64,000 bases of DNA from Candidatus Pacebacteria bacterium CG2_30_36_39 (GCA_001873435.1 MNZB01000002.1:65620-129619); one strand, 5' to 3'; shown: positions 24,929-53,185, counted from the stretch's first letter. Notes: generated by a model from the sequence alone, not told the origin. Numbers and translations: made by a program.

Positions 24929-25089
24929 ACTATATATCCTATAACATTGACTATATTGATATATTTTGTTATACTAACTGCCGTTTTAATCACTCTATAA
25001 ATGCTTTTGCAGTGTTTGTTTAGAGTTTTTAAAATATTTTTTTATAGTTCGTTAACATGAGAATTGCTTTTGTTGTCATTTATTGAAAT

Positions 25090-25139
25090 TTGGATGGTCA
25101 AAATTTGGAGAAAACTTTCTTTAGATTTTGACCATCCAA
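25090..25139. promoter_or_regulatory. perfect 15-bp inverted repeat (ttggatggtcaaaat / attttgaccatccaa, 20-nt spacer) ~40 bp upstream of ORF 25179..25466
   Basis: Read directly. Candidate operator or stem-loop. Confidence 0.3.
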
Positions 25140-25178
25140 CATCTCCTTTATGGAGAAATATATTTCACGAGGTGAATC

Positions 25179-25466
25179 ATGCAAGGCAAATACCACAATG
25201 ATCCAAATGCTGTTCATTTGGCAGATTTCTACCATCAATTGATTGCTAGCGTAAATTCTGTGAGTGCTTTAGTGGCTAAGGTCACTGAGATGCTCAATAA
25301 TCCTGACTCGACAGACTATGTCGAGCCTGGTACACATACAAAGTGTGCTTGTGATGAAGATCTACGAGATCATCTTCAGGATATTCTTGATAATCCAGAA
25401 TTTGCAAAAGATGTTTTCAATGGTGATGTCGTTGATTTCTGCCCAAGAATGCAGAACTTTTGGTAA
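25179..25466 (+). CDS. hypothetical protein
   Basis: 95-aa ORF. Confidence 0.4.
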   Translation: MQGKYHNDPNAVHLADFYHQLIASVNSVSALVAKVTEMLNNPDSTDYVEPGTHTKCACDEDLRDHLQDILDNPEFAKDVFNGDVVDFCPRMQNFW

Positions 25467-25482
25467 ATCAATAACGCTATAT

Positions 25483-25516
25483 ATGTTTGGCGCATTAAAA
25501 ATGCGCCAAACATTAT
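25483..25516. terminator. bidirectional terminator hairpin between convergent ORFs
   Basis: Stem tgtttggcgca / tgcgccaaaca (11 bp), loop ttaaaaa, followed by T-rich tract. Confidence 0.5.
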
Positions 25517-25568
25517 TAGCAATAACTTCTCATGTTAACGATTTCTTAATTTAAAAATTGATTCTGAA

Positions 25569-25796
25569 CTAATCCTTTTTTTTGGCTGCTTCTTCAGCTG
25601 CTTCTCTGGCTATTCTGACAAGGTTTAGGCCATTTTTTAGGGCTTGAGCAATAAAAGAGTCAGTATTTAGATCATCGATTAATTCATCTTTTTGATATGT
25701 TTTTCTTCTTGAAAATTTTGCAGCCCAATTTTGTCTTTTTCTTATGTCTGCAGCTTGAGATTCATCTCTTTTTCTATCTGTTTCGTTCATATTCAT
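25569..25796 (-). CDS. small hypothetical basic protein
   Basis: 75-aa ORF. Confidence 0.35.
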   Translation of the reverse strand: MNMNETDRKRDESQAADIRKRQNWAAKFSRRKTYQKDELIDDLNTDSFIAQALKNGLNLVRIAREAAEEAAKKKD

Positions 25797-25855: not shown

Positions 25856-26131
25856 TTGTTTGAATGTATAATTTTAATAATGAAAAAAAGAGTTTTATCT
25901 TTAGATTTGGCTAGAGTTTTATCTATTTTAGGTGTAGTTGCGATTCATGCTGAAAATATTACTTCTTCAAAAACAAATTATTTAGGTGGAATTTCTTGGT
26001 GGTTTGTCAATACAGTTCATTCTTTGGTTGCTGTAAGTGTTCCTTTATTTGTCATGATTTCTGGAACACTATTGTTAAATAAGAAAGATTTATCTAATAA
26101 TTATGTTTTTAGCAAAATAAAAAATATTTAA
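25856..26131 (+). pseudogene. acyltransferase-3 family N-terminal fragment (truncated remnant)
   Basis: LSLDLARVLSILGVVAIHA... matches the first two TM helices of OatA-like acyltransferase_3 proteins. At 91 aa the ORF is far shorter than that family. Confidence 0.45.
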
Positions 26132-28891: not shown

Positions 28892-29012
28892 TTCAATCAT
28901 TGGAAGAAGAAAATGGCAATATTGTGACCCTAGTGACGCGTGGTTTGAACCGCTTTTAGCTCATTTTGAGCAACTCCGCCAGATGTACGAGACATCAGAA
29001 CAGGAGGAAAGC

Positions 29013-29454
29013 GATGTTTAAGTCTACCTTATTTGACGAGTCAACTTTCTACAAGCAGTTTACCACGGATTTACTCAAGGCCAAACAAGAAGTAGTGATC
29101 GAGAGTCCATTTATCACTACTAAAAGAATGAATCAGCTAGCACCTATCTTTAGTAAGCTGGTTAGACGTGGAGTTAGAGTCTACGTCATCACCAGAGACC
29201 CTAGAGAACATCGAGAGCCTTACAAAGAGCAGTCGGAGCATGAGATACAGCACTTTGAACAAATTGGGGTGCAGGCGCTAATCTGCCAGGGCAATCATCA
29301 TCGCAAGTTAGCGATAATTGACAGAAAGATTCTTTGGGAAGGCAGTCTTAATATACTATCTCAGATTAAAAGCAGGGAAATTATGCGCCGCTTTGATGGC
29401 GGCGGCTTCGCCGTGGAGATGTTTAATTTTTTGAAACTCGAGAGATTTATATAA
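29013..29454 (+). CDS. PLD-superfamily single-HKD nuclease (Nuc/NucT-like); ORF opens at 28966 but SD-supported start is 29013
   Basis: HKD motif HHRKLAIIDRKILWEGSLN (HxKx4Dx6GSxN). AGGAGGAAAGCG-ATG at 29013. GC clearly higher than surrounding DNA. Confidence 0.7.
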
Positions 29455-29489: not shown

Positions 29490-29699
29490 ATGACAAAACA
29501 ACCAATAGAAGCAGAAATCCAAAAAGTACTTAAGATGCTTGAGGAATCAGATCCAGCTAATGCTACTCGTGAGAATGCTATCAAAGTTATTGAAGGTATG
29601 AAAACAATGGCAAGTGGAGTGATCGACAAGATTGATGATGATCTAAAAACAGGTAAAGTAAAAGTTTCTGATGATGGCAAAGTTACTCGAAAAGGTTAG
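29490..29699 (+). CDS. small hypothetical acidic protein
   Basis: 69-aa ORF with SD AAAGGAAAATATG. Confidence 0.3.
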   Translation: MTKQPIEAEIQKVLKMLEESDPANATRENAIKVIEGMKTMASGVIDKIDDDLKTGKVKVSDDGKVTRKG

Positions 29700-29906
29700 T
29701 TAAAAAGGTAAGACTTCAGACGATTTAATTCCAAGAGCTTTGACTATTTTCTCTAGTGCTTCGTAAGAAGGATTTTCTCCACCACGCTCAATACGAGCAT
29801 AGTAGTTAACATGCATCTTGGCTTTATCAGCTATCTGTTGCTGGGTTAGTCCAGTCTTGTTACGAGCTGACTTAATGTTTTGGCCGAATTGTTGTTGTGA
29901 TCCCAT
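29700..29906 (-). CDS. XRE-family helix-turn-helix transcriptional regulator
   Basis: 68 aa. GQNIKSARNKTGLTQQQIADKAKMHVNYYARIERG is a classic Cro/CI HTH. Start 6 nt after the TIR gene stop. Confidence 0.8.
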   Translation of the reverse strand: MGSQQQFGQNIKSARNKTGLTQQQIADKAKMHVNYYARIERGGENPSYEALEKIVKALGIKSSEVLPF

Positions 29907-29912
29907 ATTTAT

Positions 29913-30401
29913 TTACCTGCCTGCATTAGCTGCAGCTATTTCTATCCAGTTTCCCATGTTATTGTATCCATCATCATTTACCCAATCATAAGTTTTGTAT
30001 AGTTCTGCAAAATATATCTTTTTGCCATCTCTAGTTATATACCAGTCTGAAAAAGGATTTCTTCCTTTACTAGTAGTGTTTCCTTCTCGATCTTTTTTAT
30101 TATGTATGTAGATTCCGAGTAAACCATTTTTTTTGCCATGACTGCTTTTTATCTCATAATCAATCCACTTTCTCCCTGATGTATTTTCTCCAATTAATAC
30201 TACAGTTACTGAGGTGCCAGATAATTGGCCATCAATCCATTTCTTTATATCAGCATCATCTTTCTTTTTAACCTCTTCCCATTCAGCTGAATCAAAAAAG
30301 CCGGCAGCTTTCCTATCTTGAGTAACCCAGCTATTTCTTACTTGTGAAGCTCTCCAGTTATCCTGCTTGTAATGAAAGCTGAAAAATGTTTTTCTTGTCA
30401 T
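29913..30401 (-). CDS. TIR-like domain protein (DUF1863 / Thoeris ThsB-like)
   Basis: 162 aa. N-terminal FFSFHYKQD...VRNSWVT, central TSVTVVLIGENTSGRKWIDYEI, C-terminal YKTYDWVNDDGY. This pattern closely resembles MTH538/ThsB-type TIR proteins. Confidence 0.68.
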   Translation of the reverse strand: MTRKTFFSFHYKQDNWRASQVRNSWVTQDRKAAGFFDSAEWEEVKKKDDADIKKWIDGQLSGTSVTVVLIGENTSGRKWIDYEIKSSHGKKNGLLGIYIHNKKDREGNTTSKGRNPFSDWYITRDGKKIYFAELYKTYDWVNDDGYNNMGNWIEIAAANAGR

Positions 30402-30405
30402 CTGC

Positions 30406-30882
30406 TTACTCCTTAATTATATCAATAATATTGTTTGAATTTTGCTCGTCACAATCTATATAAAACTGAATTTTCGTGGTATTAATTTTGAGAGTCAGTG
30501 TCACAAATAACATCATTATTAGCAATGATCCATAAAAAGGAGTGAGAGTTTTTGAAAATATCGAGCGAATCCATGTATTTTTTCCTTTTTTATGTTTTCT
30601 GTAGTCCATTGAAAAATCAATATCTTTATCCTTCTGTTTTCTAACAAAGTTGTATAAATCACGATAACATCGTTCAATTGAAAGGAAAAACCCATCTAGT
30701 AGCCAAAAAACTAAAATTAAGAAAAAAGAAAACAATATGTAAATACCCTCTTCATTATTAGAAGCAACTGTCAATAATCCTATTATGAGAGTGATAGTCC
30801 AACCTTTTAAAATAAACAAGTTACCACTCATTCGTGTAATGATGGTTTGGATCATTTTGAGATGTTCAACTTTTTTATCCAT
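30406..30882 (-). CDS. small 3-TM membrane protein translationally coupled to the TIR gene (candidate membrane effector)
   Basis: 158 aa. Hydrophobic helices at ~27-40, 47-62 and 115-130. Its last codons contain the GGAG for the TIR gene (AAGGAGTAAgcagATG). Confidence 0.5.
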   Translation of the reverse strand: MDKKVEHLKMIQTIITRMSGNLFILKGWTITLIIGLLTVASNNEEGIYILFSFFLILVFWLLDGFFLSIERCYRDLYNFVRKQKDKDIDFSMDYRKHKKGKNTWIRSIFSKTLTPFYGSLLIMMLFVTLTLKINTTKIQFYIDCDEQNSNNIIDIIKE

Positions 30883-30911: not shown

Positions 30912-31514
30912 TTATTTTCCAAGAAATGTCCTTGGATTCACTGGTATCCCATATACTCTGGCTTCAAGGTGTAGATGTGGCCCTGTTGACCAGCCAGTAG
31001 AGCCCATCTTGCCGATTTCATCCTCGACCTTTACCTCTTGCCCTTCAAAGACATAGATCTTATCTAAATGGCCATAAAGTGAGGTGATTTTATCCCCGTG
31101 GTCAATGATGATGTGCTTGCCATATCCCCAGAAGATCTCACCAGCATAGACTACCTTGCCCTGCATCAAAGGAGAGATGGGAGTCCCTAAGTTGTTGGCA
31201 ATATCAATTCCAGTATGAAAAACTTGATAACCACTTGATTGAGCAAATTCTAATGTAATGACCCCTAGTACTGGCCAGGCAATCGTGTGATCTACCTCGC
31301 TCACTACTTCTCCTGTGGTGGGGTCTAGGATCTGGATATTCTTAGTTTCACTATCTACTCCCACGAGTGCATCTGACACAACATTAATACCGGTGTGAGC
31401 CAGGATAAACACAGCAATCACTGGCAACATGATGACTACGAGAAAGGCGATTAAAACGAATTTAAACTCTTTCCTAAAAGAAAATATTGCTGCTACTTGG
31501 GCATAGATGTTCAT
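30912..31514 (-). CDS. M23 family metallopeptidase (LytM-like cell-wall hydrolase), membrane anchored
   Basis: HTGIDIA (HxxxD) and GSTGWSTGPHLHLE (HxH) motifs. N-terminal TM helix. Position distal in the T4SS operon. Confidence 0.85.
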   Translation of the reverse strand: MNIYAQVAAIFSFRKEFKFVLIAFLVVIMLPVIAVFILAHTGINVVSDALVGVDSETKNIQILDPTTGEVVSEVDHTIAWPVLGVITLEFAQSSGYQVFHTGIDIANNLGTPISPLMQGKVVYAGEIFWGYGKHIIIDHGDKITSLYGHLDKIYVFEGQEVKVEDEIGKMGSTGWSTGPHLHLEARVYGIPVNPRTFLGK

Positions 31515-31516: not shown

Positions 31517-33328
31517 CTATTGGTAGATCTCTCTTGGATCAGTGGTCAAGAGAGGGTGCTCTTTTTCACTCGCTACCACCTTAAGTGCTACATGATTTTG
31601 ATCAGCAATAATTAAGCCTTCACCTTTGTCGCAAGTCAGTAAGTAGCGTTGTTCGTACTCACTCAAGTTAAACTCTTGAGCCACCTTTTTGATCGTGGTG
31701 GTGTCTTGTCTCATTAGGATACGAAGTGATGATTGTGAAGCAATTGCTCGACCATATTCTTGATTAAGAAAGTCATTTGCTTGTTGTGAGATGAGAGTGA
31801 CTCCTAGATAGTGCTTACGGGCTCGCCTAGTTAGTCCTGCTAGAAACCTAGCACTCTCTTCATGTTGGAGGAGAATCCAAGCCTCATCAATCACTAGAAT
31901 ACGCTTCTGTGGGTCAGCCTTGACTTGTGAATGAACAAAGTTAGCAGTCGCTAGAATCATAATCTGGCGGAGTGACTCGTCCAGATCCTTGATATCAAAT
32001 ACCACTAGTCGGTTATCCAGGTTCACATTAGTCTGTCCGTCAAATACCGTTGAGAGTGAGCCAGAGACAAATCTCTCCAATCTGTCACACAAGTCTTTTT
32101 GCTTCATCTTCTTGAGAGTTTTGTAGAGATCTTTTAGGAGTGGGAACTTTTGTTTGTCTTTGAACCTCTTCATTCGCATCGAGAAGCCAAAGTTTTTGTA
32201 AGTAGCAATCAGTGCTTTATCAATCACCGCTCGCTCCTCAGAGTTAAGCGATCCAACTAGTAAGGAGACTATCTCGGTTAGATCTTGGATGTGTTCGGCT
32301 AGATTATTATTGCCGTTATATGACTTGAGAGAGAAATCAAAAGGATTAATCTTTTCCTTGCTTGTTGAAGAGAGTCTAATGTATGTTCCCTTAACTGATT
32401 TAGTCAGTTGTTTGTACTCCCGCTCTGGGTCAATCACGATGACTCGGGTGCCTTGCATCAGTTGTCTTAAGATCTCGACTTTGGCGGTGTAGCTTTTACC
32501 ACTCCCAGATTGGGCAAATATTATGGCGTTAGCATTATTGAGTGAAAACCTATCCACGATTACCAAAGAGTTATTGGATTTGTTAATTCCGTACAATATC
32601 CCAGACTCTTGCACTAACTCAGACGAGACAAAGGGGAAAGTTAGCGCCGCACTAGAGCTATCTAGGTTGCGATTCTGTCCTAGTTTGTTCTCTCCTCGGG
32701 GTAGGGCGGTTTGCAGGCCCTCAAGTTGTTGGAAGGTGGCAGTCTTGATGTAAAAGAGTCTAGTAGACATGACTGTTTCTAGGATTGTGGTGATCTTGTT
32801 AAGATCGCACACGCTCTCAGCCGTGATCGTCATGTAAATACTGATCTGAAAGAGCTTTTCTTGCCCACGCTGGATCTTATCCTTAAGTTCAATTGCCGAC
32901 TCCAGTGGATCAGTAATCTCAGAACCAATTACCTTACCTTGTTTGAGCATAGTACGTTTGGTGGATTCAAGCTCAGTGATCTTTCGATTAAGTTTGGGCA
33001 GAGCTAGAAGTGGATTAATCTGCTCAATGTGATGTGAGATATCAATGTTGTGGTTAAAGTTAATGAGCATATTTAGCCAGCCCACGCTTGCAACATATGG
33101 ATAGCCGGAGATGAATAATGTGCGCACAAACTTATCACCCATTTGTAAGTAAGTAGATTCCTCCGCCAGTCCTGAATATGAGATGAGGTCAAGCTGATCT
33201 TGCCCGCCAAAATTAAACTGGACGGCCTTTTTCTCAAGTAGCTTTTGGACTTTTCTCTTTTTACTCCGCCTGACTCGCTTAGCATGTTCTTTTTTGATAG
33301 CATTTATTTTATTTTTAAAGTTAAACAT
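31517..33328 (-). CDS. type IV secretion ATPase VirB4/TrsE family, C-terminal ATPase part
   Basis: Walker A FAQSGSGKSYTAK, Walker B LVIDEAW. 603 aa. Confidence 0.85.
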   Translation of the reverse strand: MFNFKNKINAIKKEHAKRVRRSKKRKVQKLLEKKAVQFNFGGQDQLDLISYSGLAEESTYLQMGDKFVRTLFISGYPYVASVGWLNMLINFNHNIDISHHIEQINPLLALPKLNRKITELESTKRTMLKQGKVIGSEITDPLESAIELKDKIQRGQEKLFQISIYMTITAESVCDLNKITTILETVMSTRLFYIKTATFQQLEGLQTALPRGENKLGQNRNLDSSSAALTFPFVSSELVQESGILYGINKSNNSLVIVDRFSLNNANAIIFAQSGSGKSYTAKVEILRQLMQGTRVIVIDPEREYKQLTKSVKGTYIRLSSTSKEKINPFDFSLKSYNGNNNLAEHIQDLTEIVSLLVGSLNSEERAVIDKALIATYKNFGFSMRMKRFKDKQKFPLLKDLYKTLKKMKQKDLCDRLERFVSGSLSTVFDGQTNVNLDNRLVVFDIKDLDESLRQIMILATANFVHSQVKADPQKRILVIDEAWILLQHEESARFLAGLTRRARKHYLGVTLISQQANDFLNQEYGRAIASQSSLRILMRQDTTTIKKVAQEFNLSEYEQRYLLTCDKGEGLIIADQNHVALKVVASEKEHPLLTTDPREIYQ

Positions 33329-33941
33329 AGTTATTCCTTAATAAGGCTTCAATGGTTTCGCTTTTTAATTCTTGGGTCTTAATTTGAGAAGGGTTATAGA
33401 AGCTATAGAACAAATCTAGTATTTCCAAGCTATCTAGTGCCTTGGTTTTGATCCCCATCTTCTCTAGAGACTTCATAATTAGATCGCGGGTGATATGGAG
33501 CTGTTCTTTGACTAGTTCAAAATCACGCTTTTTGCCCTCATGTCGATATGGCACCACGATATAGAAGTGGCGAGAGAGAATTTTATTGCCAGACACCAGA
33601 TTCTTGATAAATTGGCAGTAGTTAGTGATCTGATTTTTGTAGACTGTTTGCTTTTCCATATCTTTTGATCTCATCATCTGCTCTAAGTATTGATCAATAT
33701 CAACTTCTCGAACTCTCACCAAAATTTGGAGGTTGCAAGGCAGTGAATTAAGAAAGTTTTGATAACTATCAATAATCACGTCCTGCTCTTCTTCGCTCTT
33801 GAGTTCAAAATTAATAGAGGAGGTCTTGATCACCAGCCGATACTCATGGTTGGGTAGTATCAGGATTCCATTTCTCACCTCTTTGATCTCAATTTGTTTC
33901 CTGGAGTTAGTCTTACTTTTTGATTTGTTCAAAAGCCACAT
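33321..33941 (-). CDS. VirB4-family N-terminal domain encoded as a separate ORF (split or frameshifted VirB4)
   Basis: 206-aa ORF overlapping the downstream ATPase ORF by 8 nt in a different frame. Combined length ~809 aa fits full-length Gram-positive VirB4 homologues. Confidence 0.5.
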   Translation of the reverse strand: MWLLNKSKSKTNSRKQIEIKEVRNGILILPNHEYRLVIKTSSINFELKSEEEQDVIIDSYQNFLNSLPCNLQILVRVREVDIDQYLEQMMRSKDMEKQTVYKNQITNYCQFIKNLVSGNKILSRHFYIVVPYRHEGKKRDFELVKEQLHITRDLIMKSLEKMGIKTKALDSLEILDLFYSFYNPSQIKTQELKSETIEALLRNNYV

Positions 33942-43614: not shown

Positions 43615-44462
43615 GTTAGTTGTTTCTTTTTTGAGGGAGGCAAGTAATTAGCTTTAGTTGACACTTTCTTACCACTTTTCTCTTCAAGCTCTTGTTTGGC
43701 GTTCCCAGCAATCTTACCACCTTCTTTGGCGGCTTGTTTGTTTTGGGAAAACCCTCGAGCATCTTTATTTTTAGCAATTTCGGTAGTAGAGGCCTCCCCC
43801 AGCATGGAGAAGATTAACTCCAGATCATTCATATGATCTCGCAAGTTCTCACGCTCAAGTCCTTTGAATTTTTTGTATTCTGAGGGAGTCATCCCAAAGG
43901 TAGCCTTGGAGATTTCTGCTGTTAGGATTGCATACTCGCGGTCTTGACCAACATTTCTCTTTTTCCATTCGTCTGTCAGAGTCTCGCGGATTTCTATTCC
44001 GCGCATGCGTTTCTCAATCCAAGAATCAGGATATCCTTTAGCCTTATATATGGCTCTAGTGCGTTTTGTGGCTAACTCTGGGTCTTCTATCTCTTGTACT
44101 CGTTCATAACCGACTTTGGCTAGCCAACGCTTGAAAGGTTCTGCTTTGGGAGAAGGGATAGACTGGATAAGTCTAAATATTCCCTCTGTATTCCAACAAT
44201 AAGCCTTTTGCCTACCACCTGGAGTTTCGATTTCTAGCATAAGGGGTGGTACAAATTGTACCCCCCCCTCATCGGTCAACTTAGCTAACTCCACATCTCT
44301 TGTTTTAAGTCTTTTGAAGTATTGGGATGGGTCTCTTGAATCTGTCAAAGATTGGATAACGTCGTTTATCACAAACCACCACTCATTATTGTGAATGGTT
44401 TTCCTTACTTTTTTGCCCTTAAATATGGCAATTTTAGTAGTAATTGTTTCTGGTTTTTTCAT
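43611..44462 (-). CDS. Bro-N domain protein (phage antirepressor-like)
   Basis: N-terminal IAIFKGKKVRKTIHNNEWWFVINDVIQSL resembles the Bro-N DNA-binding domain. 283 aa. Stop overlaps the target-gene start (ATGA). Confidence 0.55.
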   Translation of the reverse strand: MKKPETITTKIAIFKGKKVRKTIHNNEWWFVINDVIQSLTDSRDPSQYFKRLKTRDVELAKLTDEGGVQFVPPLMLEIETPGGRQKAYCWNTEGIFRLIQSIPSPKAEPFKRWLAKVGYERVQEIEDPELATKRTRAIYKAKGYPDSWIEKRMRGIEIRETLTDEWKKRNVGQDREYAILTAEISKATFGMTPSEYKKFKGLERENLRDHMNDLELIFSMLGEASTTEIAKNKDARGFSQNKQAAKEGGKIAGNAKQELEEKSGKKVSTKANYLPPSKKKQLT

Positions 44463-44565
44463 AGTTAATAAGCTCTATTCATCAATGACAAAATTAGCCA
44501 CCAATTTGCCTAATATTAATACTAGATTAGTGGTGAGTGTTTTGCAAGATGAGAGAAGACAATCG

Positions 44566-45663
44566 TTACTCAAATAAGCTCTTCATTAGTCCACGAGAGT
44601 CAGCGTGAGTTAAATGACCGATGATTGCGGCTTTGCTTGCCTCAAGTTCTTGAGTAGAGATAGTTTCATTTTTAAGTTGTTTCTTTTTCTTTCGCCAATT
44701 TCTCTCCATTCTAAGTAGAGTATTTCCACGAATCAAAATGTGATCATAAAAAACCCGGTAACCCACAAAGGGCACACCATTTTTGACGTCTTTGATATTA
44801 AGCTTCTTAGGGTGAAGGGACAAAGCCAAATTGTCTTTTAGATAAACATCTATCGTAGTTATTAGTTCTTTGAGGTACTCCTTGTCAGGATGAATGACGT
44901 AAAAATCATCCATATATCTGCCGTACCACTTGAGTTTTAACCTGTCCTTCATAAAATGATCAAGCTCATTAAGATAGATATTAGCAAATAACTGACTAGT
45001 TAAGTTGCCAATTGGTAATCCCACTCTTTTTTGAGTATTTATGCCAGGCGGTTGATAAGTACTGTTATTTGTAAAAAGAGTAAGTTGTTCTTTTGGGACT
45101 GAAGAGTTGCGATGATTGCTGGTGTGAGTAACAATAATTTTTTTAATCAAGGATCTTGTCTCTTCGCACTTGATAGTACGATTGATAATCGCGAGCAATT
45201 TATCCCAAGAAATACTCTGAAAAAACTTACTAATATCGCACTGCAGAGCATAAATCGGCGTATCTTTGCCATAAACACATCTAGCTGCCATGAGAAACTT
45301 TTTGAGTCTTTTAGCACCAAGGTGTGTTCCTTTTTCAATTCGACAAGCGTAAGCGTCATAAATGAACTGTTTTTCAAATAATGGCTGGATCTGTGCAACT
45401 AGCGAGTGTTGAACTACTCTGTCTCGAAAAGCAGGAGCAGCGATATTTCTTGCCTTTGGCTCATGCACTACGAAGTATGTATAAGCCTGGGGAGTGTATC
45501 GGTGGCGTGATAGCTCCCAACTGAGTCTATTGACATTTTCTTCCAAAAAGAAAGAAAAGACACACACTTTTCTCTTGTAGTGATTATCTAGTTGAGCTTT
45601 TTTGAAAGCATTATGTAAGTTTTGTAAGTTATATATTTTGTTAAACATGCTAATAAACGACAA
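44566..45663 (-). CDS. DGR-type reverse transcriptase
   Basis: 365 aa. RT motifs incl. LPIGNLTSQLFANIYLNELD and YGRYMDDFYV (YMDD). Compact size without maturase/endonuclease domains. TR immediately upstream. Confidence 0.85.
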   Translation of the reverse strand: MSFISMFNKIYNLQNLHNAFKKAQLDNHYKRKVCVFSFFLEENVNRLSWELSRHRYTPQAYTYFVVHEPKARNIAAPAFRDRVVQHSLVAQIQPLFEKQFIYDAYACRIEKGTHLGAKRLKKFLMAARCVYGKDTPIYALQCDISKFFQSISWDKLLAIINRTIKCEETRSLIKKIIVTHTSNHRNSSVPKEQLTLFTNNSTYQPPGINTQKRVGLPIGNLTSQLFANIYLNELDHFMKDRLKLKWYGRYMDDFYVIHPDKEYLKELITTIDVYLKDNLALSLHPKKLNIKDVKNGVPFVGYRVFYDHILIRGNTLLRMERNWRKKKKQLKNETISTQELEASKAAIIGHLTHADSRGLMKSLFE

Positions 45664-45887
45664 ACCCAGCTTTCGCAGGGCTTGTCTCTCGTACCCTTTG
45701 TTTTTTAGTGCCTATTTGCTTTACCATTCGCGCTTTGAGAATGGTAAAAATACGGGCATTATTTTTGTCTAACATAACATCAGACTGGAAAAAATCACTG
45801 TGATCCTAAAAACCCTGGATATATGTCCGTGAACACATACCACTCGTTCTGGCTACCACTTTGGGTACCTAAGTGGTAATAGCAGTA

Positions 45888-46006
45888 ATCGCTGGCACAG
45901 CGAAAGCCAATATTGTTGTTCTGATTGCCTGGCGCATTATTCAGATTCAAAGCGAATGCCCCGGCGTTGGACGTATTATTCCAATTACCGCCGCAGAGGA
46001 AGGCAT
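45888..46006 (-). repeat. DGR template repeat (TR); the overlapping 78-aa ORF 45795..46031 is not a real gene
   Basis: Encodes GGNWNNTSNAGAFALNLNNAPGNQNNNIGFRCAS, rich in AAY Asn codons. It corresponds to RGGNWSLTASAGAFALNLGNAPGGQYSALGFRCAS in the target. Confidence 0.72.
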
Positions 46007-46045
46007 GCTGCGTTTTGTTAATTTTCCCCACGTTTAATCATACAT

Positions 46046-46384
46046 TTATTTACCTTTTCTCATCCAGCAATTTAACATTCTGCCAATCTCATTCAACTTT
46101 TCTGATCCCAGTAAATATTGCTTAACACTCATCAGGTGTAAGTCTTTAGTGAGGCGCAACAAAATTCTTAATAAATCTAACTCGTTTGAACTTAGTTTCT
46201 GAAAAGAATCTCTCTCAGCTCCTCTAGCGTTGTTGGCGTTTATCAAGCTTACCAGTAGTGACAAGCCCTCTTCTTCTAGTTTTGTACCTAAAATTTGTCG
46301 ATGGTTTTTGGGCAGGCGATTAATAATTGGGTATAGCCATAGTACAAAGTCATATGTTTTTTGGTGCAAGATAAATTTTTCCAT
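46046..46384 (-). CDS. Avd-like accessory variability determinant (small four-helix protein)
   Basis: 112 aa, basic/helical, immediately upstream of the TR-RT pair in the same orientation. Confidence 0.55.
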   Translation of the reverse strand: MEKFILHQKTYDFVLWLYPIINRLPKNHRQILGTKLEEEGLSLLVSLINANNARGAERDSFQKLSSNELDLLRILLRLTKDLHLMSVKQYLLGSEKLNEIGRMLNCWMRKGK

Positions 46385-46591: not shown

Positions 46592-46906
46592 ATGAAACTA
46601 CTCACAAAAACATTATTAAACAGGTTTGGAGCAGTCGGCAGACAAGAGGAGTCGGCCGATCCCTTGGTAATTGCCAAGTTCTTCAATCCCACAGGTGCGG
46701 GCACTTGGTACGCCACAGAATTTGATCCAGACTCCAAAGAGTTCTTTGGGTTCGTTTCGATTTTTGGTGATCACAATGACGAGTGGGGATACTTCTCCCT
46801 GGCAGAGCTTGAAAGCTATCAAGGCAAGTTCGGTCTTGGGATTGAGCGGGATCTGTATTTTGACGAGCAGAGAATCAGTGAAGTTGTACCCGGAGCAAAA
46901 TTATAA
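46592..46906 (+). CDS. DUF2958-like protein (family common on conjugative elements)
   Basis: AKFFNPTGAGTWYATEFDPDSKEFFGFVSIFGDHNDEWGYFSLAELES pattern, recalled from memory of the DUF2958 family. Confidence 0.45.
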   Translation: MKLLTKTLLNRFGAVGRQEESADPLVIAKFFNPTGAGTWYATEFDPDSKEFFGFVSIFGDHNDEWGYFSLAELESYQGKFGLGIERDLYFDEQRISEVVPGAKL

Positions 46907-47021
46907 ATGATTAACTGCCGCGGGGCTAACCACCCCGCAGATAGAATTAGAAAATATGATTAGAGGTTAAAATATCATGTGATATTATTGATATGTAGTA
47001 TTAAAACTAAGCAATAAAATT

Positions 47022-47255
47022 ATGACACTTGTCTTTCTTAAGCCTAATTGGCTAACAATTGTCCTTTTTAGCATATTACTGATGCTACCGGTTATAGATG
47101 GCTATCCCGCATTAGTTTTAATTTTTTCTTACTTATGGCTTGGTGAGTTATACGGACTTTTATTGATACTAGGTTTTACGATACTTGCTTATATTGTTGC
47201 ATCAGGCATATCAAGATTAACAATATTTATTACAAATAAATTGTTAAATAAATAA
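47022..47255 (+). CDS. small hypothetical membrane protein
   Basis: 77 aa, two TM helices. Confidence 0.3.
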   Translation: MTLVFLKPNWLTIVLFSILLMLPVIDGYPALVLIFSYLWLGELYGLLLILGFTILAYIVASGISRLTIFITNKLLNK

Positions 47256-47270
47256 TACAGACGCAGTCAC

Positions 47271-47768
47271 ATGATTAAGAGATTAACCCCAATCATACTC
47301 ATAGTCATGGCAATTAGTGCTGGATATTTTTATTTAATTAAACCCACCGAAGAAAGTTTAGAAGCTCCAGGGAAGGACTGGGAATCAGCCAAGAAAGTAG
47401 AAGATTATTTTATTGAACGCCTCCACATGACTGTTCCTGAAGCCGAGCAGATCAGATCCAAGCCAGGAGTTGATGGAACAGTTGACTTGCGAATCAGTAC
47501 AGAAGTTACACTTGATGCTCTTATAGGCAATCTATATCACTATGGATTTATCAGGGATGAAAAAGCTTTTAGGTACGCTCTTGAGCACACCAAAGACACA
47601 ACCCCAAGCGATAAAGCTCTTAAGGTAGGAAATAACGGAACAATCGATACAAACGCAGAATATAGAATCTCTGAGAACATGAGTGCTTGGGAACTGGCTG
47701 ATTTACTGCTCAACAAACCCGCTGGACATTACTCATATGATAAATATAATTATTTTTTCATGCCTTAG
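47271..47768 (+). CDS. hypothetical secreted protein
   Basis: 165 aa with signal anchor. Confidence 0.4.
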   Translation: MIKRLTPIILIVMAISAGYFYLIKPTEESLEAPGKDWESAKKVEDYFIERLHMTVPEAEQIRSKPGVDGTVDLRISTEVTLDALIGNLYHYGFIRDEKAFRYALEHTKDTTPSDKALKVGNNGTIDTNAEYRISENMSAWELADLLLNKPAGHYSYDKYNYFFMP

Positions 47769-48542
47769 TTACTCGTCATCTGAATCGACCTTTTCCCAGT
47801 TACCAGCAAAAGCCTGCTCGTGAGTAGCTAAATAGACCTCTGTTTCATCTAGCGATGTCTCGTCATAAATTCTCCCTAAGTGTTTTTTGAGATAGATCAA
47901 GCTAGCAAACCCTGGACAGATAAATAGAATGGTTGGGAAAGGGTGTCCCGTTTTCTCCTCAAATTTGCCATCTTCCAGATAATCGTTATATTGCTCGATT
48001 CTTCGCCTGAGAGCAAAGCGTGGCGACGCGTCGTCGATTAGTTCGACAAAATAACGCTTAGTTTCATTCTTCTTATCAACTCTGGCAAAATACGCATCCG
48101 GCAGGGGGTGAAGTAGATAAGGATGAGCCAATAGATCAGTTTTGGTAAAAAAGTGAAGAGTATGAGCTGATTTCTGGGAGTCAGTTATTAGGTGAAGATA
48201 ATACTCAGCAATAAATGAAGACCTAGCGATAAACTGTTGAGAGCGCATTTTCTCTCGATAGACTCGCTTGAGAGCTCGCTTGTCTATACCGTCTCTACCT
48301 TCCAATATCTTAATACTGCCTGAGGCTAGGTAATATACGGCTGGTTGATTGGCTTGACCTAGTGAGCGAGTGTAGTGTTTGCCGATGTAGTTGTGAGTAG
48401 TGAGAATTTGTAGGTGATAGTTCGTTAGACGGATATTTTTGTGACTCAGAAGTTTAGAGATTTGACGACTAGTTAAGAAACGAAAACGATAAAGATAGTG
48501 AAGTATTGTAAGTTGGGATGCTGGTAATTGTTGACTGGCCAT
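47769..48542 (-). CDS. Replic_Relax family protein (replication-relaxation, winged helix)
   Basis: N-terminal LTILHYLYRFRFLTSRQISKLL wHTH typical of this family. 257 aa. Adjacent to the coupling protein. Confidence 0.55.
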   Translation of the reverse strand: MASQQLPASQLTILHYLYRFRFLTSRQISKLLSHKNIRLTNYHLQILTTHNYIGKHYTRSLGQANQPAVYYLASGSIKILEGRDGIDKRALKRVYREKMRSQQFIARSSFIAEYYLHLITDSQKSAHTLHFFTKTDLLAHPYLLHPLPDAYFARVDKKNETKRYFVELIDDASPRFALRRRIEQYNDYLEDGKFEEKTGHPFPTILFICPGFASLIYLKKHLGRIYDETSLDETEVYLATHEQAFAGNWEKVDSDDE

Positions 48543-48677: not shown

Positions 48678-51275
48678 TCACGGCAACAAAGAATTGACCT
48701 TATTAGATCTCCTTACGATCTCCTTTTTAACTGATACTTTCTCACTCTCTACAAACTTTCGGGCATACAATCTACGAGAGGACTCAACTACTGTATCTGC
48801 CACTTTCTGATTAGACTCCAATTCTACTGGCACCGTTATCCCAGAGAATGGCGCCTCTGGATTAATTGCTCCTAATCTCATGTAAAAGCGATAAGAGGGT
48901 AAACTAGCAATCTCACCTGGCTCAATATATGGCCGGAATTGAGGCAAGATGACTCGCTCGTCCTCAGGGTTGGCTGTTCGAAAGCAAATCACTGTCCCAG
49001 TATTAGCCAAAGTAATATTAACCAGTGAGCCATCTTCTAGTTGAGAGGTGGTTTGATGAGCCAAAATTGCATTTAGTTTGTATTTTCTAGCCTCAGATAA
49101 AATTTGCGCAAAAGCAGGAGTCGCAAAGTTCTGAAACTCATCCACATATAAGTAGAAGTCACGGCGCTCGTCTTGGGTCATCCGAGCCCGTTTGAGGGCT
49201 GCTAACTGAATCTTGGCCATGATCAATACTCCAAAGACACTCGAGTTATCCTCACCAATCTTACCTTTTGAAAGATTGCATAGCAGAATTTTGTCATCAT
49301 TCAAGATCGAGTCAAAGTTAACAGTGGACTTGCTCTGCTCTAGGATTCTCTTAGCAGTGGGAGAAAATAAAAACCTTCCAATCTTGTTAGTAATCGGCGA
49401 GATCATCTTCACTTTTTGATAGTCTCCCGCCTTGGCAAACTCATACTTCCAGAAGTCCAAAAGATTCTCATCCGTCAGCCCTTTCACTACTGACTTACGA
49501 TACTTTGTGTTGATCAGGAGCTTGTAGACGGTAAAGAGGGTTGCACCAGGGACGGTAAAAGCGGTATGGATAGTGTTTCTTAAGATATATTCCATCCTGG
49601 GGCCAGAGTATTTGTCGGTATAGATCTTGTGGAATACCGAGATAATACTCTCAGCAACAAACTCTTTTTCTCGGATGGCTTCCTCAGCTGATAAGTTAGG
49701 AGTTAACTCAAGTAAGTTAATACCTATCGGATAGCCAATGTCATCAGGATTAAAGTAAACCACATCTTTGATTCTCTTCTTAGGAATAACTGTCAAAATC
49801 TGCTCAATCAAGTCTCCATGAGGATCAACGATTGCTAGACCTTTGTTGTGATCAATATCTTGTTTAATCATCGATAGGAGCATGGTTGACTTACCAGTTC
49901 CGGTTGCCCCCAGCACATAAACATGGCGTCTGCGCTCATCCAGACTCAAGCCAATCTCAGTTTTTACCCCGCCATAAGTATTTCTGCCAAAGTAGAGATC
50001 ACACACAGCTTTTTGTTTGAGCGAGAGTGGTGCCGGAAGTTCTTTGCTGTGAGACTTCACAAGATCCTCAGTCTTGGCAGTGCTGGTAAATGGGAAATGA
50101 TAGATATCACCAATCTCTGAAGCAGAGAGAATTGACTTGTTAAGCAGTCGGGGCAAGCGGTTAGTGAATAAGTGTCTTTTGAAACGACTAATTAACTTTA
50201 GTTTCCAAGCTAGAGACTTGACTAACATTTGATAGCTTGAGTTATTGAATGAAGACAAGGTAGAGACAAATCCTTTTTCATGATTTCCTAGGCTGCCTTT
50301 ATTGCTACTCACCACCAACAGTCGTAGTGAGGTGCTAAATAGTTGTTGATCTAGTTTGTGCTTTACCAACCCTTCCATTTCTTCCTGATAGGGGTTATTA
50401 GTTTTTTGTTGTTGATCTTTGGCGTGGATTGACAGGAGTGGCCCTTCTTTGCCGTCGGTTAATAAGAACACTAGTAAGCCAATCGGGAACAGGAGAATTT
50501 GTAGAGCTACATATAGTAGTTGCTGAAAGATGGCGAGGTAGGGGTGCTCTTGCAAGCGATCATTGATGTTAACCACCAAGTCATTACCAGAATATATCAA
50601 TTTGGAGATTCTCTTAATATCCGCCACCATACTTTTGTTTATTGGTGCCACAATGATTTGAAAGGCAATCAACTCATTCTCTTTGAGCTTTGTCATGCTC
50701 CCAGTCATGTAAGCAATTGGGTCGTGCTTATCTAGTGACTCTTGCTTCTTAAGAGGTAGGGCAAAGTGATTGGAGAGCTTGAATTCAGTGATTTTGTGAG
50801 GCTTTGTCTCTAGGTCTTGTGGTAAGTAATCAGCAACTTTTTTGATAGCAATCCCAGGTAAATAAGAAAAAAGGCTTTTCTCTACCAGTTCTACATCATT
50901 TTTATCAACTCTAATCAGGTATCTAATCCCAGCTTCCTTAGTAGAGACTATTTCAAAAGCATAGTTCTTGGAGATATTAAAGAATCGCTCCAATCTCGAG
51001 GCTTGTCTTGCTAGCCCATGAAGCATGTTAAAGAGTTGTTCAGTGGTAAAGGGGTTTTGCTCGGTAATCCTCAGGGGTTTGGCCTCAATTATAATTTGTG
51101 GTCTGTTTTGGAGCTTGTGGGTCAGTAAATATCTAGTCAAATGATACGCGAGAAACAAAAGAGCCCAAACAGCGATTAGTGCAATTGAAGAGTTTAACCA
51201 AAAAGAAAGATCAATATCAGATAAATATCGAGCAGGAGTTTGAAGTTTTAAGAATATCTCACTAAGTGTATACAT
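48678..51275 (-). CDS. type IV coupling protein (VirD4/TraG/TraD family)
   Basis: 865 aa. N-terminal TM helices. Walker A VLGATGTGKST, Walker B YLYVDEFQNFA. Confidence 0.85.
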   Translation of the reverse strand: MYTLSEIFLKLQTPARYLSDIDLSFWLNSSIALIAVWALLFLAYHLTRYLLTHKLQNRPQIIIEAKPLRITEQNPFTTEQLFNMLHGLARQASRLERFFNISKNYAFEIVSTKEAGIRYLIRVDKNDVELVEKSLFSYLPGIAIKKVADYLPQDLETKPHKITEFKLSNHFALPLKKQESLDKHDPIAYMTGSMTKLKENELIAFQIIVAPINKSMVADIKRISKLIYSGNDLVVNINDRLQEHPYLAIFQQLLYVALQILLFPIGLLVFLLTDGKEGPLLSIHAKDQQQKTNNPYQEEMEGLVKHKLDQQLFSTSLRLLVVSSNKGSLGNHEKGFVSTLSSFNNSSYQMLVKSLAWKLKLISRFKRHLFTNRLPRLLNKSILSASEIGDIYHFPFTSTAKTEDLVKSHSKELPAPLSLKQKAVCDLYFGRNTYGGVKTEIGLSLDERRRHVYVLGATGTGKSTMLLSMIKQDIDHNKGLAIVDPHGDLIEQILTVIPKKRIKDVVYFNPDDIGYPIGINLLELTPNLSAEEAIREKEFVAESIISVFHKIYTDKYSGPRMEYILRNTIHTAFTVPGATLFTVYKLLINTKYRKSVVKGLTDENLLDFWKYEFAKAGDYQKVKMISPITNKIGRFLFSPTAKRILEQSKSTVNFDSILNDDKILLCNLSKGKIGEDNSSVFGVLIMAKIQLAALKRARMTQDERRDFYLYVDEFQNFATPAFAQILSEARKYKLNAILAHQTTSQLEDGSLVNITLANTGTVICFRTANPEDERVILPQFRPYIEPGEIASLPSYRFYMRLGAINPEAPFSGITVPVELESNQKVADTVVESSRRLYARKFVESEKVSVKKEIVRRSNKVNSLLP

Positions 51276-51367
51276 AACCTACCTTTAGTTGGGCAGGTGT
51301 TTGACAGAAGTATATCTTAGAGAGTTAATAAACGCCAGTACTTGACTAAAATTAGTCTAAAAAAGAC

Positions 51368-51397
51368 TTGACAACTATCCGTATTAGTATATATACT
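51368..51397 (+). promoter_or_regulatory. sigma70-like promoter candidate upstream of the recombinase operon
   Basis: TTGACA at 51368 and TATACT at 51392 with 18-nt spacing. Confidence 0.3.
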
Positions 51398-51432
51398 AAC
51401 CATATAGGGATAGTTACAAACAAGCTTTGAAT

Positions 51433-51606
51433 ATGAGTAAAGATAGCCTAAAACCAGAAGTAGATCAGAAGTTCCCAGTGCAAGATCTCCAAGATGCAAA
51501 AGTAGAAATCAAGTATCTAGCTCGCACTTGGTTAGATGACTTTGAGAAGCAAGTATTTCACGGCAAAACAGTAGAGGAGTTACTAGGTAGGGGTAACTAT
51601 GACTAG
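51433..51606 (+). CDS. 57-aa acidic small ORF overlapping the recombinase start (ATGACTAG); candidate recombination directionality factor
   Basis: ATG..TAG frame read manually. Below the ORF-track cutoff. Confidence 0.25.
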   Translation: MSKDSLKPEVDQKFPVQDLQDAKVEIKYLARTWLDDFEKQVFHGKTVEELLGRGNYD

Positions 51607-53158
51607 GGATGAGAAAAATACCAAAACTGATGCGATCCTATATCTCAGAGTCTCCACTGAGGAGCAAGTAGATAACTTCTCCCTTGGTACCCAAGAAGAA
51701 ATCTGTCGCAAAGAAGCGACTCGCATGGGCATGAAAATCGTCAAAATCTTTCGGGAAGAGGGCAAATCAGCCAAAACCATTGTCGGTAGACCTCAACTAG
51801 TTGAGCTCCTCAAGTATTGTAGGCAAAACAAAAAGACTCTAGGGGCAGTGTTTGTTTATCGCCTAGATAGACTCTCCAGAAAGACTGCTGACTACCTTAG
51901 CATTAGAAAAAGTCTGATTAACTATCAGATTCAGCTTATCTCAGCGTCAGAGCCTACAGGCACCTCACCAACAGACACACTTCTTGAGACTATTCTTGCT
52001 AGCTTTGCCCAGCACGACAACGACGTAAGGAGTGAGCGCACCAGAAACGGAATGCACGCTAGATTTATGTCGGGCCTTATTACTCGTAAGCCTCCTCTGG
52101 GTTACTTGATGAATCCTCAAAAGATCCCAGTCAAAGATCCTGAAACCTGGGATTTGGTCAAACAAGCTTGGGACTTAATGGCTACCGGCACCAAGAGCTT
52201 GCGAGAAATGGCAATAATCATGAATAAACTAGGTCTACGTACCAAGTCACACGGCAAACCATATGAACTAAGAACCCAGACTGCTCACCGCATCTTCAAA
52301 AACAAATTCTATGCTGGCATCCTTACCTCAGATACCTACAAAGAAGAGGTGAAGGGTCAACACACGCCCATGATTACTCTTGAGCAGTATTATCGAGTGC
52401 AAAACATCCTAGAAGGTAGATGTGTTAATAAAAAAGCTCTCAACATTAAAAAAACTCGACTCAATCAAAAGTTCCCTCTCAGAAGAATTATTAAATGTGC
52501 TGAGTGTGGGACTGGACTCACTGCTGGCTGGAGTAAGGGTAGAACCAAGAGATATCCTTACTATAGATGTGCTAATGGCTGTAAACAGACCTCGGTTAGA
52601 GCCGAAGTATTAGATGAGACAGTAGTAGAGCTACTTCGCTCAATTACACCCAAGAAAGAATGCCTAGAGCTCTTTACTCAGTATGTAGTCGAAGAATACG
52701 AGTCTAGACTCGAGAACATTAAGAAAGCCAAAAACGTTGCTGACGGCGAGATCCAGAGGCTCAAAGACATGCGAAAAATACTGGTCGAAAAGAACATGAT
52801 GGGCATCTATACCGATGAAATCTTTATGGAACAAAACGCCCTTATCGAGAAGAAAATGACTGTCGTCGAAGTAGCCAAATCCGACTCCACTCTAGAGAAA
52901 TATGACATCCACAAACTGTCTGATTTTATCAAGGCAACTCTTAGTGATCTGGGGAGTACTTATAAGCGGTCAACTGTTTCCCAGGCTAAAGCATTAATTG
53001 GTTCAATCTTCCCTTTGGGAATCAGTTACAACATTGACGGTACATTGAACCATGAAATTAACCCAATGTATCAAGCTATTCTCAACTATGATACTCAGGG
53101 CATCTCGTATGGTGACCCCATGGGGAATCGAACCCCAGTTACCAGGATGAGAACCTAG
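51599..53158 (+). CDS. large serine recombinase (integrase)
   Basis: Resolvase-type N-terminus AILYLRVSTEEQ with catalytic Ser, VYRLDRLSR, recombinase domain, and Cys-rich zinc ribbon (CAECGTGL...YYRCANGC). 519 aa. Its last ~49 nt overlap the tRNA-Glu gene. Confidence 0.85.
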   Translation: MTRDEKNTKTDAILYLRVSTEEQVDNFSLGTQEEICRKEATRMGMKIVKIFREEGKSAKTIVGRPQLVELLKYCRQNKKTLGAVFVYRLDRLSRKTADYLSIRKSLINYQIQLISASEPTGTSPTDTLLETILASFAQHDNDVRSERTRNGMHARFMSGLITRKPPLGYLMNPQKIPVKDPETWDLVKQAWDLMATGTKSLREMAIIMNKLGLRTKSHGKPYELRTQTAHRIFKNKFYAGILTSDTYKEEVKGQHTPMITLEQYYRVQNILEGRCVNKKALNIKKTRLNQKFPLRRIIKCAECGTGLTAGWSKGRTKRYPYYRCANGCKQTSVRAEVLDETVVELLRSITPKKECLELFTQYVVEEYESRLENIKKAKNVADGEIQRLKDMRKILVEKNMMGIYTDEIFMEQNALIEKKMTVVEVAKSDSTLEKYDIHKLSDFIKATLSDLGSTYKRSTVSQAKALIGSIFPLGISYNIDGTLNHEINPMYQAILNYDTQGISYGDPMGNRTPVTRMRT

Positions 53159-53185
53159 TGTCCTAAACCACTAGACGATGGGGCC
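53110..53185 (-). tRNA. tRNA-Glu (anticodon CUC), CCA encoded
   Basis: Manual cloverleaf: acceptor GGCCCCA/TGGGGTC, D-arm GTCT-AGTGGTTTA-GGAC, anticodon arm CTAGG-TTCTCAT-CCTGG, T-arm TGGGG-TTCGATT-CCCCA, ACCA. The D-arm TCGTCTAGTGG...GGACA is typical of tRNA-Glu. Confidence 0.85.

Follow-up and report, generated by a model that had tools for sequence, protein, structure and literature searches.

A probable integrative and conjugative element, with a large serine recombinase, at the 3′ end of a tRNA-Glu gene in Candidatus Pacebacteria

A stretch of 64,000 nucleotides from the ultra-small patescibacterium Candidatus Pacebacteria bacterium CG2_30_36_39 (GCA_001873435.1, MNZB01000002.1:65620-129619), referred to throughout as the window, contains what is probably an integrative and conjugative element (ICE): a 24.2-kb unit (28,93x-53,11x) with a conjugative gene set, inserted by a large serine recombinase (LSR) at the 3′ end of the gene for tRNA-Glu(CUC), a reading that is held here at a probability of about 0.75. 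The original prediction, made from the sequence alone, was of an ICE-like element integrated at tRNA-Glu by such a recombinase, and it has been borne out in that relatives are found without the island and the recombinase module recurs at many tRNAs. Insertion at tRNA genes is classically the work of tyrosine integrases, and a family of serine integrases that uses tRNA 3′ ends systematically is unusual; moreover, the architecture of its attachment (att) sites mimics the tRNA with the predicted shift of 5 bp. What is rated as new in comparison with known systems is an ICE with a tRNA-3′-end-specific serine integrase family, the LSR being otherwise ordinary in architecture. No description of such a family was found in the literature searched, and a full-text search on Patescibacteria, serine recombinase, tRNA and conjugation returned nothing relevant.

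The recombinase and its tRNA targets

The LSR is a protein of 519 amino acids encoded on the plus strand (51599..53158), in which the Resolvase (PF00239), Recombinase (PF07508) and Zn_ribbon_recom (PF13408) domains follow one another in that order, each above its cut-off. The catalytic serine (S19, within YLRVS) is invariant across 28 sequences, and the relatives of the protein in the Protein Data Bank are the SPbeta, A118 and TP901-1 integrases. The only tRNA of the window, Glu(CUC), lies on the minus strand (53110..53185 with ARAGORN; 57.8 bits at 53113..53185 with the Rfam tRNA model), and the LSR open reading frame (ORF) shares 49 nt (53110..53158) with the 3′ part of this gene, which it reads in antisense. 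The final 16 codons of the recombinase run through the tRNA in this way and approximately the last 13 of them are host-encoded. The overlap on opposite strands had been part of the original prediction and is confirmed with ARAGORN, Pfam and Rfam.

Is such an overlap a matter of chance? Homologues of the LSR number more than 1,300 at E<1e-20, of which the best 120 are 55-100% identical, and 80 metagenomic loci were fetched, 63 of them informative in having at least 110 nt beyond the LSR. A convergent tRNA, with its 3′ end beneath the LSR stop codon, is present in 59 of the 63 informative loci, and chance can therefore be set aside. The tRNAs concerned are 15 isoacceptors of Leu, Glu, Gly, Ser, His and Met, to which an IMG/VR contig adds tRNA-Phe, and several of the remaining contigs, with short sequence past the LSR, terminate inside a tRNA. 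The C-terminal tails of the homologues likewise resemble antisense translations of various tRNA 3′ ends. Recombinases that are at least 70% identical to each other occupy Gly, Glu, His and Met tRNAs, and one clade has five Leu isoacceptors as its targets. Overlap with a tRNA is the rule for a large LSR family and not a quirk of this copy, such that the earlier remark that serine recombinases seldom target tRNA genes stands for the enzyme class as a whole but not for this family.

The same locus can be followed in genomes where the island is missing. Relatives were found through a scan of species-representative genomes for the ribosome recycling factor (frr) gene, the nearest reference genomes being Patescibacteria metagenome-assembled genomes labelled Paceibacterota/Pacebacteria. 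At 67-81% protein identity, these relatives have the same gene order in the right flank, with tRNA-Glu(CUC) approximately 5 kb upstream of frr, and in loci L005-L010 the tRNA and right flank are accompanied by neither a recombinase nor a type IV secretion system (T4SS) gene adjoining the tRNA. Alignment with the tRNA loci of relatives L005-L013 is conserved over the promoter, CGTATAAT, and the entire tRNA and ends exactly at the tRNA 3′ end. Housekeeping genes lie on both sides of the block, with phosphoglycerate kinase (PGK), class II aldolase (FBA) and glpX to the left and frr, rseP and secDF to the right; the homologue of the left-flank ORF at 25569..25796 is found approximately 0.7 kb from the tRNA in L006 and L007, as against 27 kb in the window. 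The comparison with related genomes that had been proposed for locating an empty site thus succeeds at the level of related species, which have the flanks and the tRNA without the island, but gives no empty site within the same species.

As the LSR reading frame crosses the junction, the C-terminal tail of the protein differs between the integrated and the attP forms. In the integrated state the tail is host-encoded (...GDPMGNRTPVTRMRT), whereas the attP form is expected to be a protein of 536 amino acids with ...GDPSDAWFEPLL... as its tail; tails of the attP type are present in the database homologues P0003, P0018 and P0101. The start of the LSR gene is overlapped by an ORF of 57 amino acids on the same strand (51433..51606), which has no Pfam match and is present in all same-species contigs. 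Loci L169 and L170 have a small ORF at the equivalent position, and the encoded peptide is a candidate for a possible regulator or directionality factor.

A separate arrangement occurs in locus L151 (11478-21000), where, past two adjacent tRNA-Leu genes, there is an inverted second module, in which genes for a coupling protein and a Replic_Relax protein accompany that of a distant LSR (21% identity). Two elements appear here to flank one tRNA-Leu pair, facing it from opposite sides.

Attachment sites and the extent of the element

It had been supposed that no flanking direct repeat was visible at this locus and that the left boundary was therefore undefined. An imperfect 11-nt direct repeat, TAT(T/G)GTGACCC, is in fact found at 28920-28930 and 53108-53118, within which a 7-nt core, GTGACCC, is identical at 28924-28930 and 53112-53118, and this repeat together with an attP-type half-site puts the left end at approximately 28.92 kb. 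The left junction (28900..28955) is of the attR type, consisting of a host B arm, the core and an element P′ arm, and is recognised by the core and a mimic of the tRNA T-arm; the right junction (53090..53140) is of the attL type, with an element P arm, the core and a host B′ arm that holds the T-arm motif itself, and it is here that the homology of the relatives ends. The left sequence, just upstream of a phospholipase D (PLD)-family nuclease gene, reads TATTGTGACCCTAGTGACGCGTGGTTTGAACCGC (28920-28953), and the antisense tRNA end from 53108 reads TATGGTGACCCCATGGGGAATCGAACCCC. The T-arm 9-mer TCGAACCCC (53128-53136) recurs at the left end as TTGAACCGC (28945-28953), a sequence resembling a zinc-ribbon (ZD) motif that is placed exactly 5 bp farther from the core.

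This displacement has a counterpart in the published model of serine integrases, in which the ZD motif occupies positions 16-24 of the attP half-site and 11-19 of the attB half-site (PMC3783163). With the crossover assumed to fall at CC, the motifs here sit exactly at these positions. A distal motif that is 5 bp nearer to the crossover in attB is observed for the P′/B′ arms of four elements, the other three, which are independent of one another, having their +5 left-end sites in L160 (tRNA-Gly-GCC), L141 (tRNA-Leu-UAG) and L097 (tRNA-Glu-UUC), the last a decayed remnant of 3 kb. When 277 kb of upstream sequence was scanned at offsets of -3 to +13, the +5 offset gave four matches and every other offset no more than two, which were weaker. 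The +5 P′ signature offers a means to delimit such elements genome-wide.

Where within the core the strands would be exchanged can be narrowed further. Mismatches confine the crossover to antisense tRNA positions 3-9: at position 2 the left junction has the host-type base and the right junction the element's CCA, and at position 10 the pattern of host and element is the opposite. At a best guess, the strands cross over at a CC (28929-28930 and 53117-53118) that corresponds to tRNA nt 68-69. From the two junctions attP is reconstructed as CAGGGCATCTCGTATGGTGACCCTAGTGACGCGTGGTTTGAACCGCTTTTAGC and attB as GAAGAAAATGGCAATATTGTGACCCCATGGGGAATCGAACCCCAGTTACC, and the reconstructed empty site ends ...GGGGTCACAA, the same as in relatives L007, L009, L010 and L013. 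The tRNA gene would accordingly be a composite, in which nt 1-68 and the promoter are host-derived and the ~8 nt at the 3′ terminus, GGTCACCA, with the CCA that they encode, probably come from the element.

On this placement the element comes to 24,188 bp, with its left end at about 28.92 kb (28,920-28,953). At 42.3% GC it is richer in these bases than the flanks, which have 36-37%, and the step falls at 28.8-29.1 kb. The predicted start at 25000 is not a boundary, and the interval from 25.0 to ~28.92 kb, including the small AT-rich cassettes (25.8-28.9 kb) that had been counted with the element, is placed outside it because the repeat and the attP-type half-site set the left end where they do. 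This AT-rich segment (25801-28920; 27% GC) lies between the host gene at 25569..25796 and the left end of the element, is absent in relatives L006 and L007, and contains a truncated, strain-variable Acyl_transf_3 fragment (25856..26131), a HAD-like gene and small ORFs that match no family.

Neither the window nor 38 related loci yielded a displaced tRNA fragment or direct repeat of at least 12 nt, so that the pattern is not that of a tyrosine integrase; a near-match at 29895 falls in the start codon region of a helix-turn-helix (HTH) gene and was judged to be chance. Nor was a tyrosine recombinase detected in domain scans of the proteins of the block. By comparison, locus L161 has a tRNA-Lys(CUU) gene (4228-4300) with a 36-nt direct repeat of its 3′ part (3470-3505) approximately 0.75 kb away, which is the classical displaced-fragment signature of another island, of tyrosine type, or its remnant, near an LSR element.

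The related elements add further detail to the att sites. In L160 the left-end site is followed by PLD and HTH genes and a host K+ channel gene (TMEM175) lies to its left. Its tRNA-Gly(GCC) (11476-11550, ARAGORN) has an atypical T-loop region, antisense ...GGGATGCGCGCCCGC, and the left-end mimic (1696-1730) bears a matching GCGCCC, an apparent covariation between the target and the element site. The L160 element is only ~9.8 kb long and has a DUF1848 gene and a SNF2-helicase/methyltransferase gene in place of the T4SS. Junctions of the attP type, where the 3′ end of the LSR is joined to the core with P′ spacing and without a tRNA, occur in L153, L158, L169 and L170; integrated tRNA sites were considered for L153 and L158 and rejected, since no tRNA folds there. 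In L169 (1-3800) the genes argG and argH, for argininosuccinate synthase and lyase, adjoin the Replic_Relax, coupling protein and LSR genes, an unexpected neighbourhood for a Patescibacteria-type element.

These observations can be combined in a proposed mechanism of insertion. The element's own LSR would insert it into the chromosome, at the tRNA-Glu(CUC) 3′ end, by recombination inside the 7-nt core, which lies on the 3′ strand of the acceptor stem, with attP spanning the 3′ end of the LSR gene itself. The tRNA would stay intact because the element supplies the missing 3′ nucleotides and the host keeps the remainder with its promoter, and the LSR frame would then continue over the junction into host tRNA DNA. 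The zinc-ribbon domain is proposed to recognise the T-arm in attB and, in attP, the T-arm mimic 5 bp farther out, while the acceptor-stem region would give the tRNA-specific contacts. A zinc ribbon that reads a universal feature of tRNAs would explain the ease with which close relatives move among tRNA genes, and integrase engineering could make use of serine integrases that recognise such a conserved feature while varying naturally in specificity.

How does this compare with what is known of other integration systems? To our knowledge, the known LSRs and serine integrases have protein-coding or intergenic sites as their targets. The recombinases of A118, Bxb1, phiC31 and SPbeta, TndX of Tn5397 and CcrAB of SCCmec share with the present enzyme the Resolvase, Recombinase and zinc-ribbon domains and an absence of long flanking repeats, and in the A118/LI model the distal motif is also 5 bp farther out in the element-side half-site. 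The present family differs from these systems in its target, the acceptor/T-arm end of tRNA genes, which in this family takes in at least 16 isoacceptors, and in an LSR frame that crosses the junction. Tyrosine-integrase islands of the Islander type are similar in that they insert at tRNA 3′ ends, restore the gene with element sequence and place the integrase gene beside the tRNA, but they employ a different enzyme family and leave a displaced tRNA fragment of tens of nt, in place of which there is here a core of 7-11 nt. The available text of PMC4383910 and PMC10484663 treats tRNA targeting as a hallmark of tyrosine integrases, and the Islander-type logic given in that of the former would miss these elements, as would standard island finders, which rely on displaced tRNA fragments or tyrosine integrases. 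A Prochlorococcus study has 27 of 937 integrative elements with an LSR, their targets not being stated in the available part of that source.

Transfer genes and mobility

Every gene listed in the original prediction for this block has been confirmed with Pfam, NCBIfam and PADLOC. Adjacent to the LSR is a type IV coupling protein (T4CP) of the VirD4/TraD type on the minus strand (48678..51275; 865 amino acids; PF10412, PF12696, PF02534, with TraD/CD1115 matches below cut-off), followed by the Replic_Relax protein (47769..48542, minus strand; PF13814, 49.5 bits against a cut-off of 25.3) and, on the plus strand, by a DUF2958 protein (46592..46906; PF11171, E=6e-20) with two small ORFs of 77 and 165 amino acids (together 46592..47768). 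The secretion apparatus proper is encoded farther to the left, all on the minus strand. It comprises a VirB2-like pilin (35756..36145), a VirB6-like polytopic protein with an N-terminal pilin domain (34428..35720) and a PrgI/VirB3-like protein (33913..34431), the three together (33913..36145) matching PF12666, PF18895, PF04956 and the Mbov_0395 pilin-like family. There follow a split VirB4, with an N-terminal TrsD/TraC-like part of 206 amino acids (33321..33941; CD1110/TrsD matches) and a C-terminal part of 603 amino acids (31517..33328; 369.9 bits with the NCBIfam model for the CD1110 family conjugal transfer ATPase, the cut-off of which is 325), and an M23 peptidoglycan hydrolase (30912..31514; PF01551, E=4.5e-31). 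The VirB4 split is also seen in other contigs and in L162. The Replic_Relax, PLD, DUF2958 and PrgI-like proteins have no NCBIfam model matches.

This arrangement is conserved well beyond the window. The order DUF2958(+), Replic_Relax(-), T4CP(-), LSR(+) and tRNA is repeated in dozens of loci beside many tRNAs; the T4CP adjoins the LSR in most related loci, DUF2958 is next to Replic_Relax in many, and in L162 the T4SS genes are upstream of the module as in the window. Of the features of an ICE, the gene content provides a VirB4 above cut-off, the T4CP, VirB6-like, PrgI-like and pilin proteins and the M23 hydrolase, and the junctions provide an LSR at the right end, cores at both sides and a P′-type half-site.

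It had also been claimed that a canonical relaxase is absent. A candidate does exist, as a survey of streptococcal mobilizable elements lists PF13814 as the MobC (MOB_C) class of relaxase (PMC5357655), and the Replic_Relax protein is accordingly proposed as a candidate MOB_C-type relaxase with a putative nuclease function. Within a set of 26 close homologues (alignment A4) residues E97, D149 and E167 are invariant; in a diverse alignment of 19 sequences (A3) only E97 is invariant, with D149 replaced in four and E167 in two. In the AlphaFold (AF2) model (pLDDT 85) a winged helix at the N-terminus precedes an alpha-beta-beta-beta-alpha-beta domain, for which no solved structure gave a match. That this protein may fill the relaxase role is suggested by the family assignment and by its retention beside the T4CP. 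Standard relaxase screens may miss MOB_C-type proteins of this kind. The intergenic DNA between the Avd and DUF2958 genes has two overlapping repeats (46523-46566), one a perfect inverted repeat of 10 nt (GGGAAGCATG..CATGCTTCCC) and the other of 12 nt, and these hairpins are a candidate regulatory or oriT-like site.

Gene content alone would suggest how transfer proceeds. The element could be excised as a circle and nicked by the MOB_C-type Replic_Relax protein, after which the VirD4-like coupling protein would pass the DNA on for export through a T4SS of the monoderm type, formed from the split VirB4, VirB6-like, PrgI-like, pilin and M23 proteins, prior to re-integration at a tRNA of the recipient. 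The closest parallels are the monoderm-type (MPF_FATA, Firmicutes-Mollicutes) ICEs, such as the Clostridioides CD1110-type and Mycoplasma ICEs. They share with the present element the CD1110-family VirB4, the Mbov_0395-type pilin-like protein, the PrgI/VirB3-like and VirB6-like proteins, a cell-wall hydrolase, a VirD4-like T4CP and a chromosomal location with an integrase at one end; unlike them, the element combines an LSR for tRNA 3′ ends, a split VirB4, a MOB_C-type relaxase candidate, a Patescibacterium host and a cargo that includes a diversity-generating retroelement (DGR).

Several points weigh against a conjugative, LSR-mobilised element and are best considered together. Among the same-species contigs neither an empty site nor a circular junction was found for this copy. 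Within the element, the search for an oriT yielded the candidate hairpins only, and that for a recombination directionality factor only the 57-residue candidate beside the LSR; a Foldseek comparison of the C-terminal domain of Replic_Relax with solved structures returned no nuclease, which leaves its relaxase role a family assignment. The P and B arms gave no convincing motif or dyad symmetry, the peaks of symmetry in the reconstructed attP and attB being weak and lacking in consistency; which dinucleotide the crossover uses is inferred from the junction sequences. Circular DNA, plasmids or tandem arrays could each account for the contigs on which attP-type junctions occur. Finally, Quinonero-Coronel et al. 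(2025) argue that the T4SSs of Patescibacteria are mostly non-conjugative: the clusters they describe are mostly relaxase-less, chromosomal and often near dnaA, and co-option is proposed (PMC12102498).

These points bear most directly on the idea that the insertion took place as described but has since become a fixed, domesticated island, where the T4SS serves epibiosis and the LSR, T4CP and Replic_Relax are relics or have acquired other roles. In keeping with this, all of the same-species contigs examined carry the island (they number more than 20 and stem from several projects, having been retrieved by exact protein look-ups with the LSR, a right-flank gene, a left-flank gene and the PLD protein), and no excised form was found in the look-ups of these contigs and IMG/VR, where the attP junction pattern for this copy had no match; the terminal overlaps that would mark circular contigs were likewise missing among 32 full contigs. 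The literature concludes that the T4SS of Patescibacteria has a chromosomal location and, as a rule, no relaxase, and that epibiotic growth is impossible without it in the one species where this was tested (PMC12102498); a cargo with a DGR-diversified surface protein fits an interaction with a host cell. However, the same-species contigs are 99.88-99.995% identical to the window and, being near-clonal, say little about mobility or polymorphism, so that their apparent fixation is uninformative. The genes for transfer, processing and integration are all intact, with the catalytic serine of the LSR conserved; the same module is found at many different tRNAs and in mosaic combinations, and attP-type junctions are present in related elements. 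Nor does the setting resemble that of the co-opted systems, as the flanks are PGK/FBA/glpX and frr/rseP/secDF, not dnaA, and the cluster lies within an insertion. The clusters of that study have the same parts (VirB4, TrsD-like, PrgI/VirB3, VirB6 and a VirB2-like pilin) and are related to monoderm conjugation, but here the cluster shares an island delimited by att sites with genes for a T4CP, a MOB_C-type protein and an LSR; recombinases and tRNAs are unmentioned in the text of PMC12102498. Domestication is on balance unlikely, and conjugative transfer is what the gene content points to.

Two other explanations concern the extent and origin of the block. The element might be larger (~25.8-53.1 kb), such that the AT-rich cassettes belong to it or are left over from a previous insertion at this tRNA, with the 28.92-kb site being internal. 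The segment from 25.8 to 28.9 kb is indeed extra with respect to L006 and L007, and its truncated acyltransferase gene and low GC content would suit a remnant. Yet the P′ site and matching core lie at 28.92 kb and are followed by the PLD-HTH module just as in L160, where the host TMEM175 gene is directly to the left; the 9-mer GCCATTTTC (tRNA sense), just left of 28,920, is shared, by eye, with the sequence downstream of the tRNA in L008; GC content rises at the same place; and no tRNA-like or P′-like site was found near 25.8 kb. An element of that size is very improbable. That the block could be ancestral core, or that the LSR could come from a small unrelated element beside T4SS genes, draws on the commonness of chromosomal T4SS clusters in Patescibacteria (PMC12102498), but is already contradicted and can be all but dismissed, given the related species without the block at the tRNA-Glu site, the adjacency of LSR, T4CP and Replic_Relax in dozens of loci and the matching att half-site beyond the T4SS genes.

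With the ICE-type reading preferred, a wider and more tentative proposal, to which we give somewhat less than even odds, is that of a Patescibacteria-wide LSR family, defined by a T-arm zinc-ribbon motif, an acceptor-stem crossover and hopping between tRNAs through small changes, which together with MOB_C-type Replic_Relax proteins would constitute genuine and widespread ICEs, with a sizeable fraction of the "co-opted" T4SSs still able to conjugate. Whether or not the T4SSs of Patescibacteria are conjugative is a question that this element makes directly testable.

Some contigs also vary within the island. Right beside an end of contig L002, in a part of the Replic_Relax gene corresponding to window 48084-48225, there are 18 single-nucleotide polymorphisms within 140 nt, and further contigs break within the island, L004 in the coupling protein gene and L088 right after the PLD gene. 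The cluster and the breaks suggest variant elements co-occurring in those samples.

Cargo and neighbouring features

The first gene within the left end encodes the PLD-family nuclease (29014..29454, plus strand; PF13091, E=5e-12), homologues of which directly follow the P′ site in L160 and the attP-type junctions in L153 and L158. It is followed by an ORF of 69 amino acids on the plus strand (within 29490..29906) and an HTH_3 regulator on the minus strand (29700..29906; PF01381, E=5e-15), and the order PLD-x-HTH is kept in L160. Next, on the minus strand, are a ThsB-like TIR protein (29913..30401; PF08937; PADLOC ThsB E=5e-69) and a membrane partner of 158 amino acids, which together (29913..30882) match the PADLOC candidate system PDC-M50 (PDC-M50A/B) and form a candidate defence pair carried as cargo. 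Beyond the transfer cluster lie genes for an FtsX/MacB-like permease and an ABC ATPase (36279..39031, minus strand; PF02687, PF12704, PF00005).

The largest cargo unit is the DGR (39034..46384, minus strand), in which Pfam matches and repeat comparison identify a target protein of 1526 amino acids, a Bro-N protein, a reverse transcriptase (RT; 44566..45663), a template repeat (TR; 45888-46006), a variable repeat within the target gene (VR; 42457-42575) and Avd (46046..46384). The TR and VR are 119 nt long and 85% identical, and an inspection of the aligned strings places most mismatches within the repeat at adenines of the TR, so that RT, Avd and an adenine-biased repeat pair are all in place. 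The VR is situated within an N-terminal FGE-sulfatase/C-type-lectin-like domain of the target and not at its C-terminus. In a comparison with a contig from another sample, which is otherwise identical over 21.5 kb, seven of the ten differences fall at 42526-42555, in the VR, and the remaining three are adjacent to one another (42938-42940); from this distribution the island's DGR appears to be active. The Bro-N protein beside the DGR (43611-44462) matches the PADLOC candidate PDC-S13 (E=4e-108) and is also candidate defence cargo.

Elements L152 and L154 are 84-89% identical in nucleotide sequence to window positions 37.7-46.4 kb and 47.8-48.7 kb, but have no coupling protein at that position and an LSR that is only 54% identical and sited at tRNA-Leu. 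By this comparison the elements of the family are mosaic.

Outside the island, a T at window position 22152 creates a TAA stop codon by which a large surface protein is cut into ORFs of 1229 and 169 amino acids; other same-species contigs have a G at the matching position, where one gene of 1406 amino acids is called.

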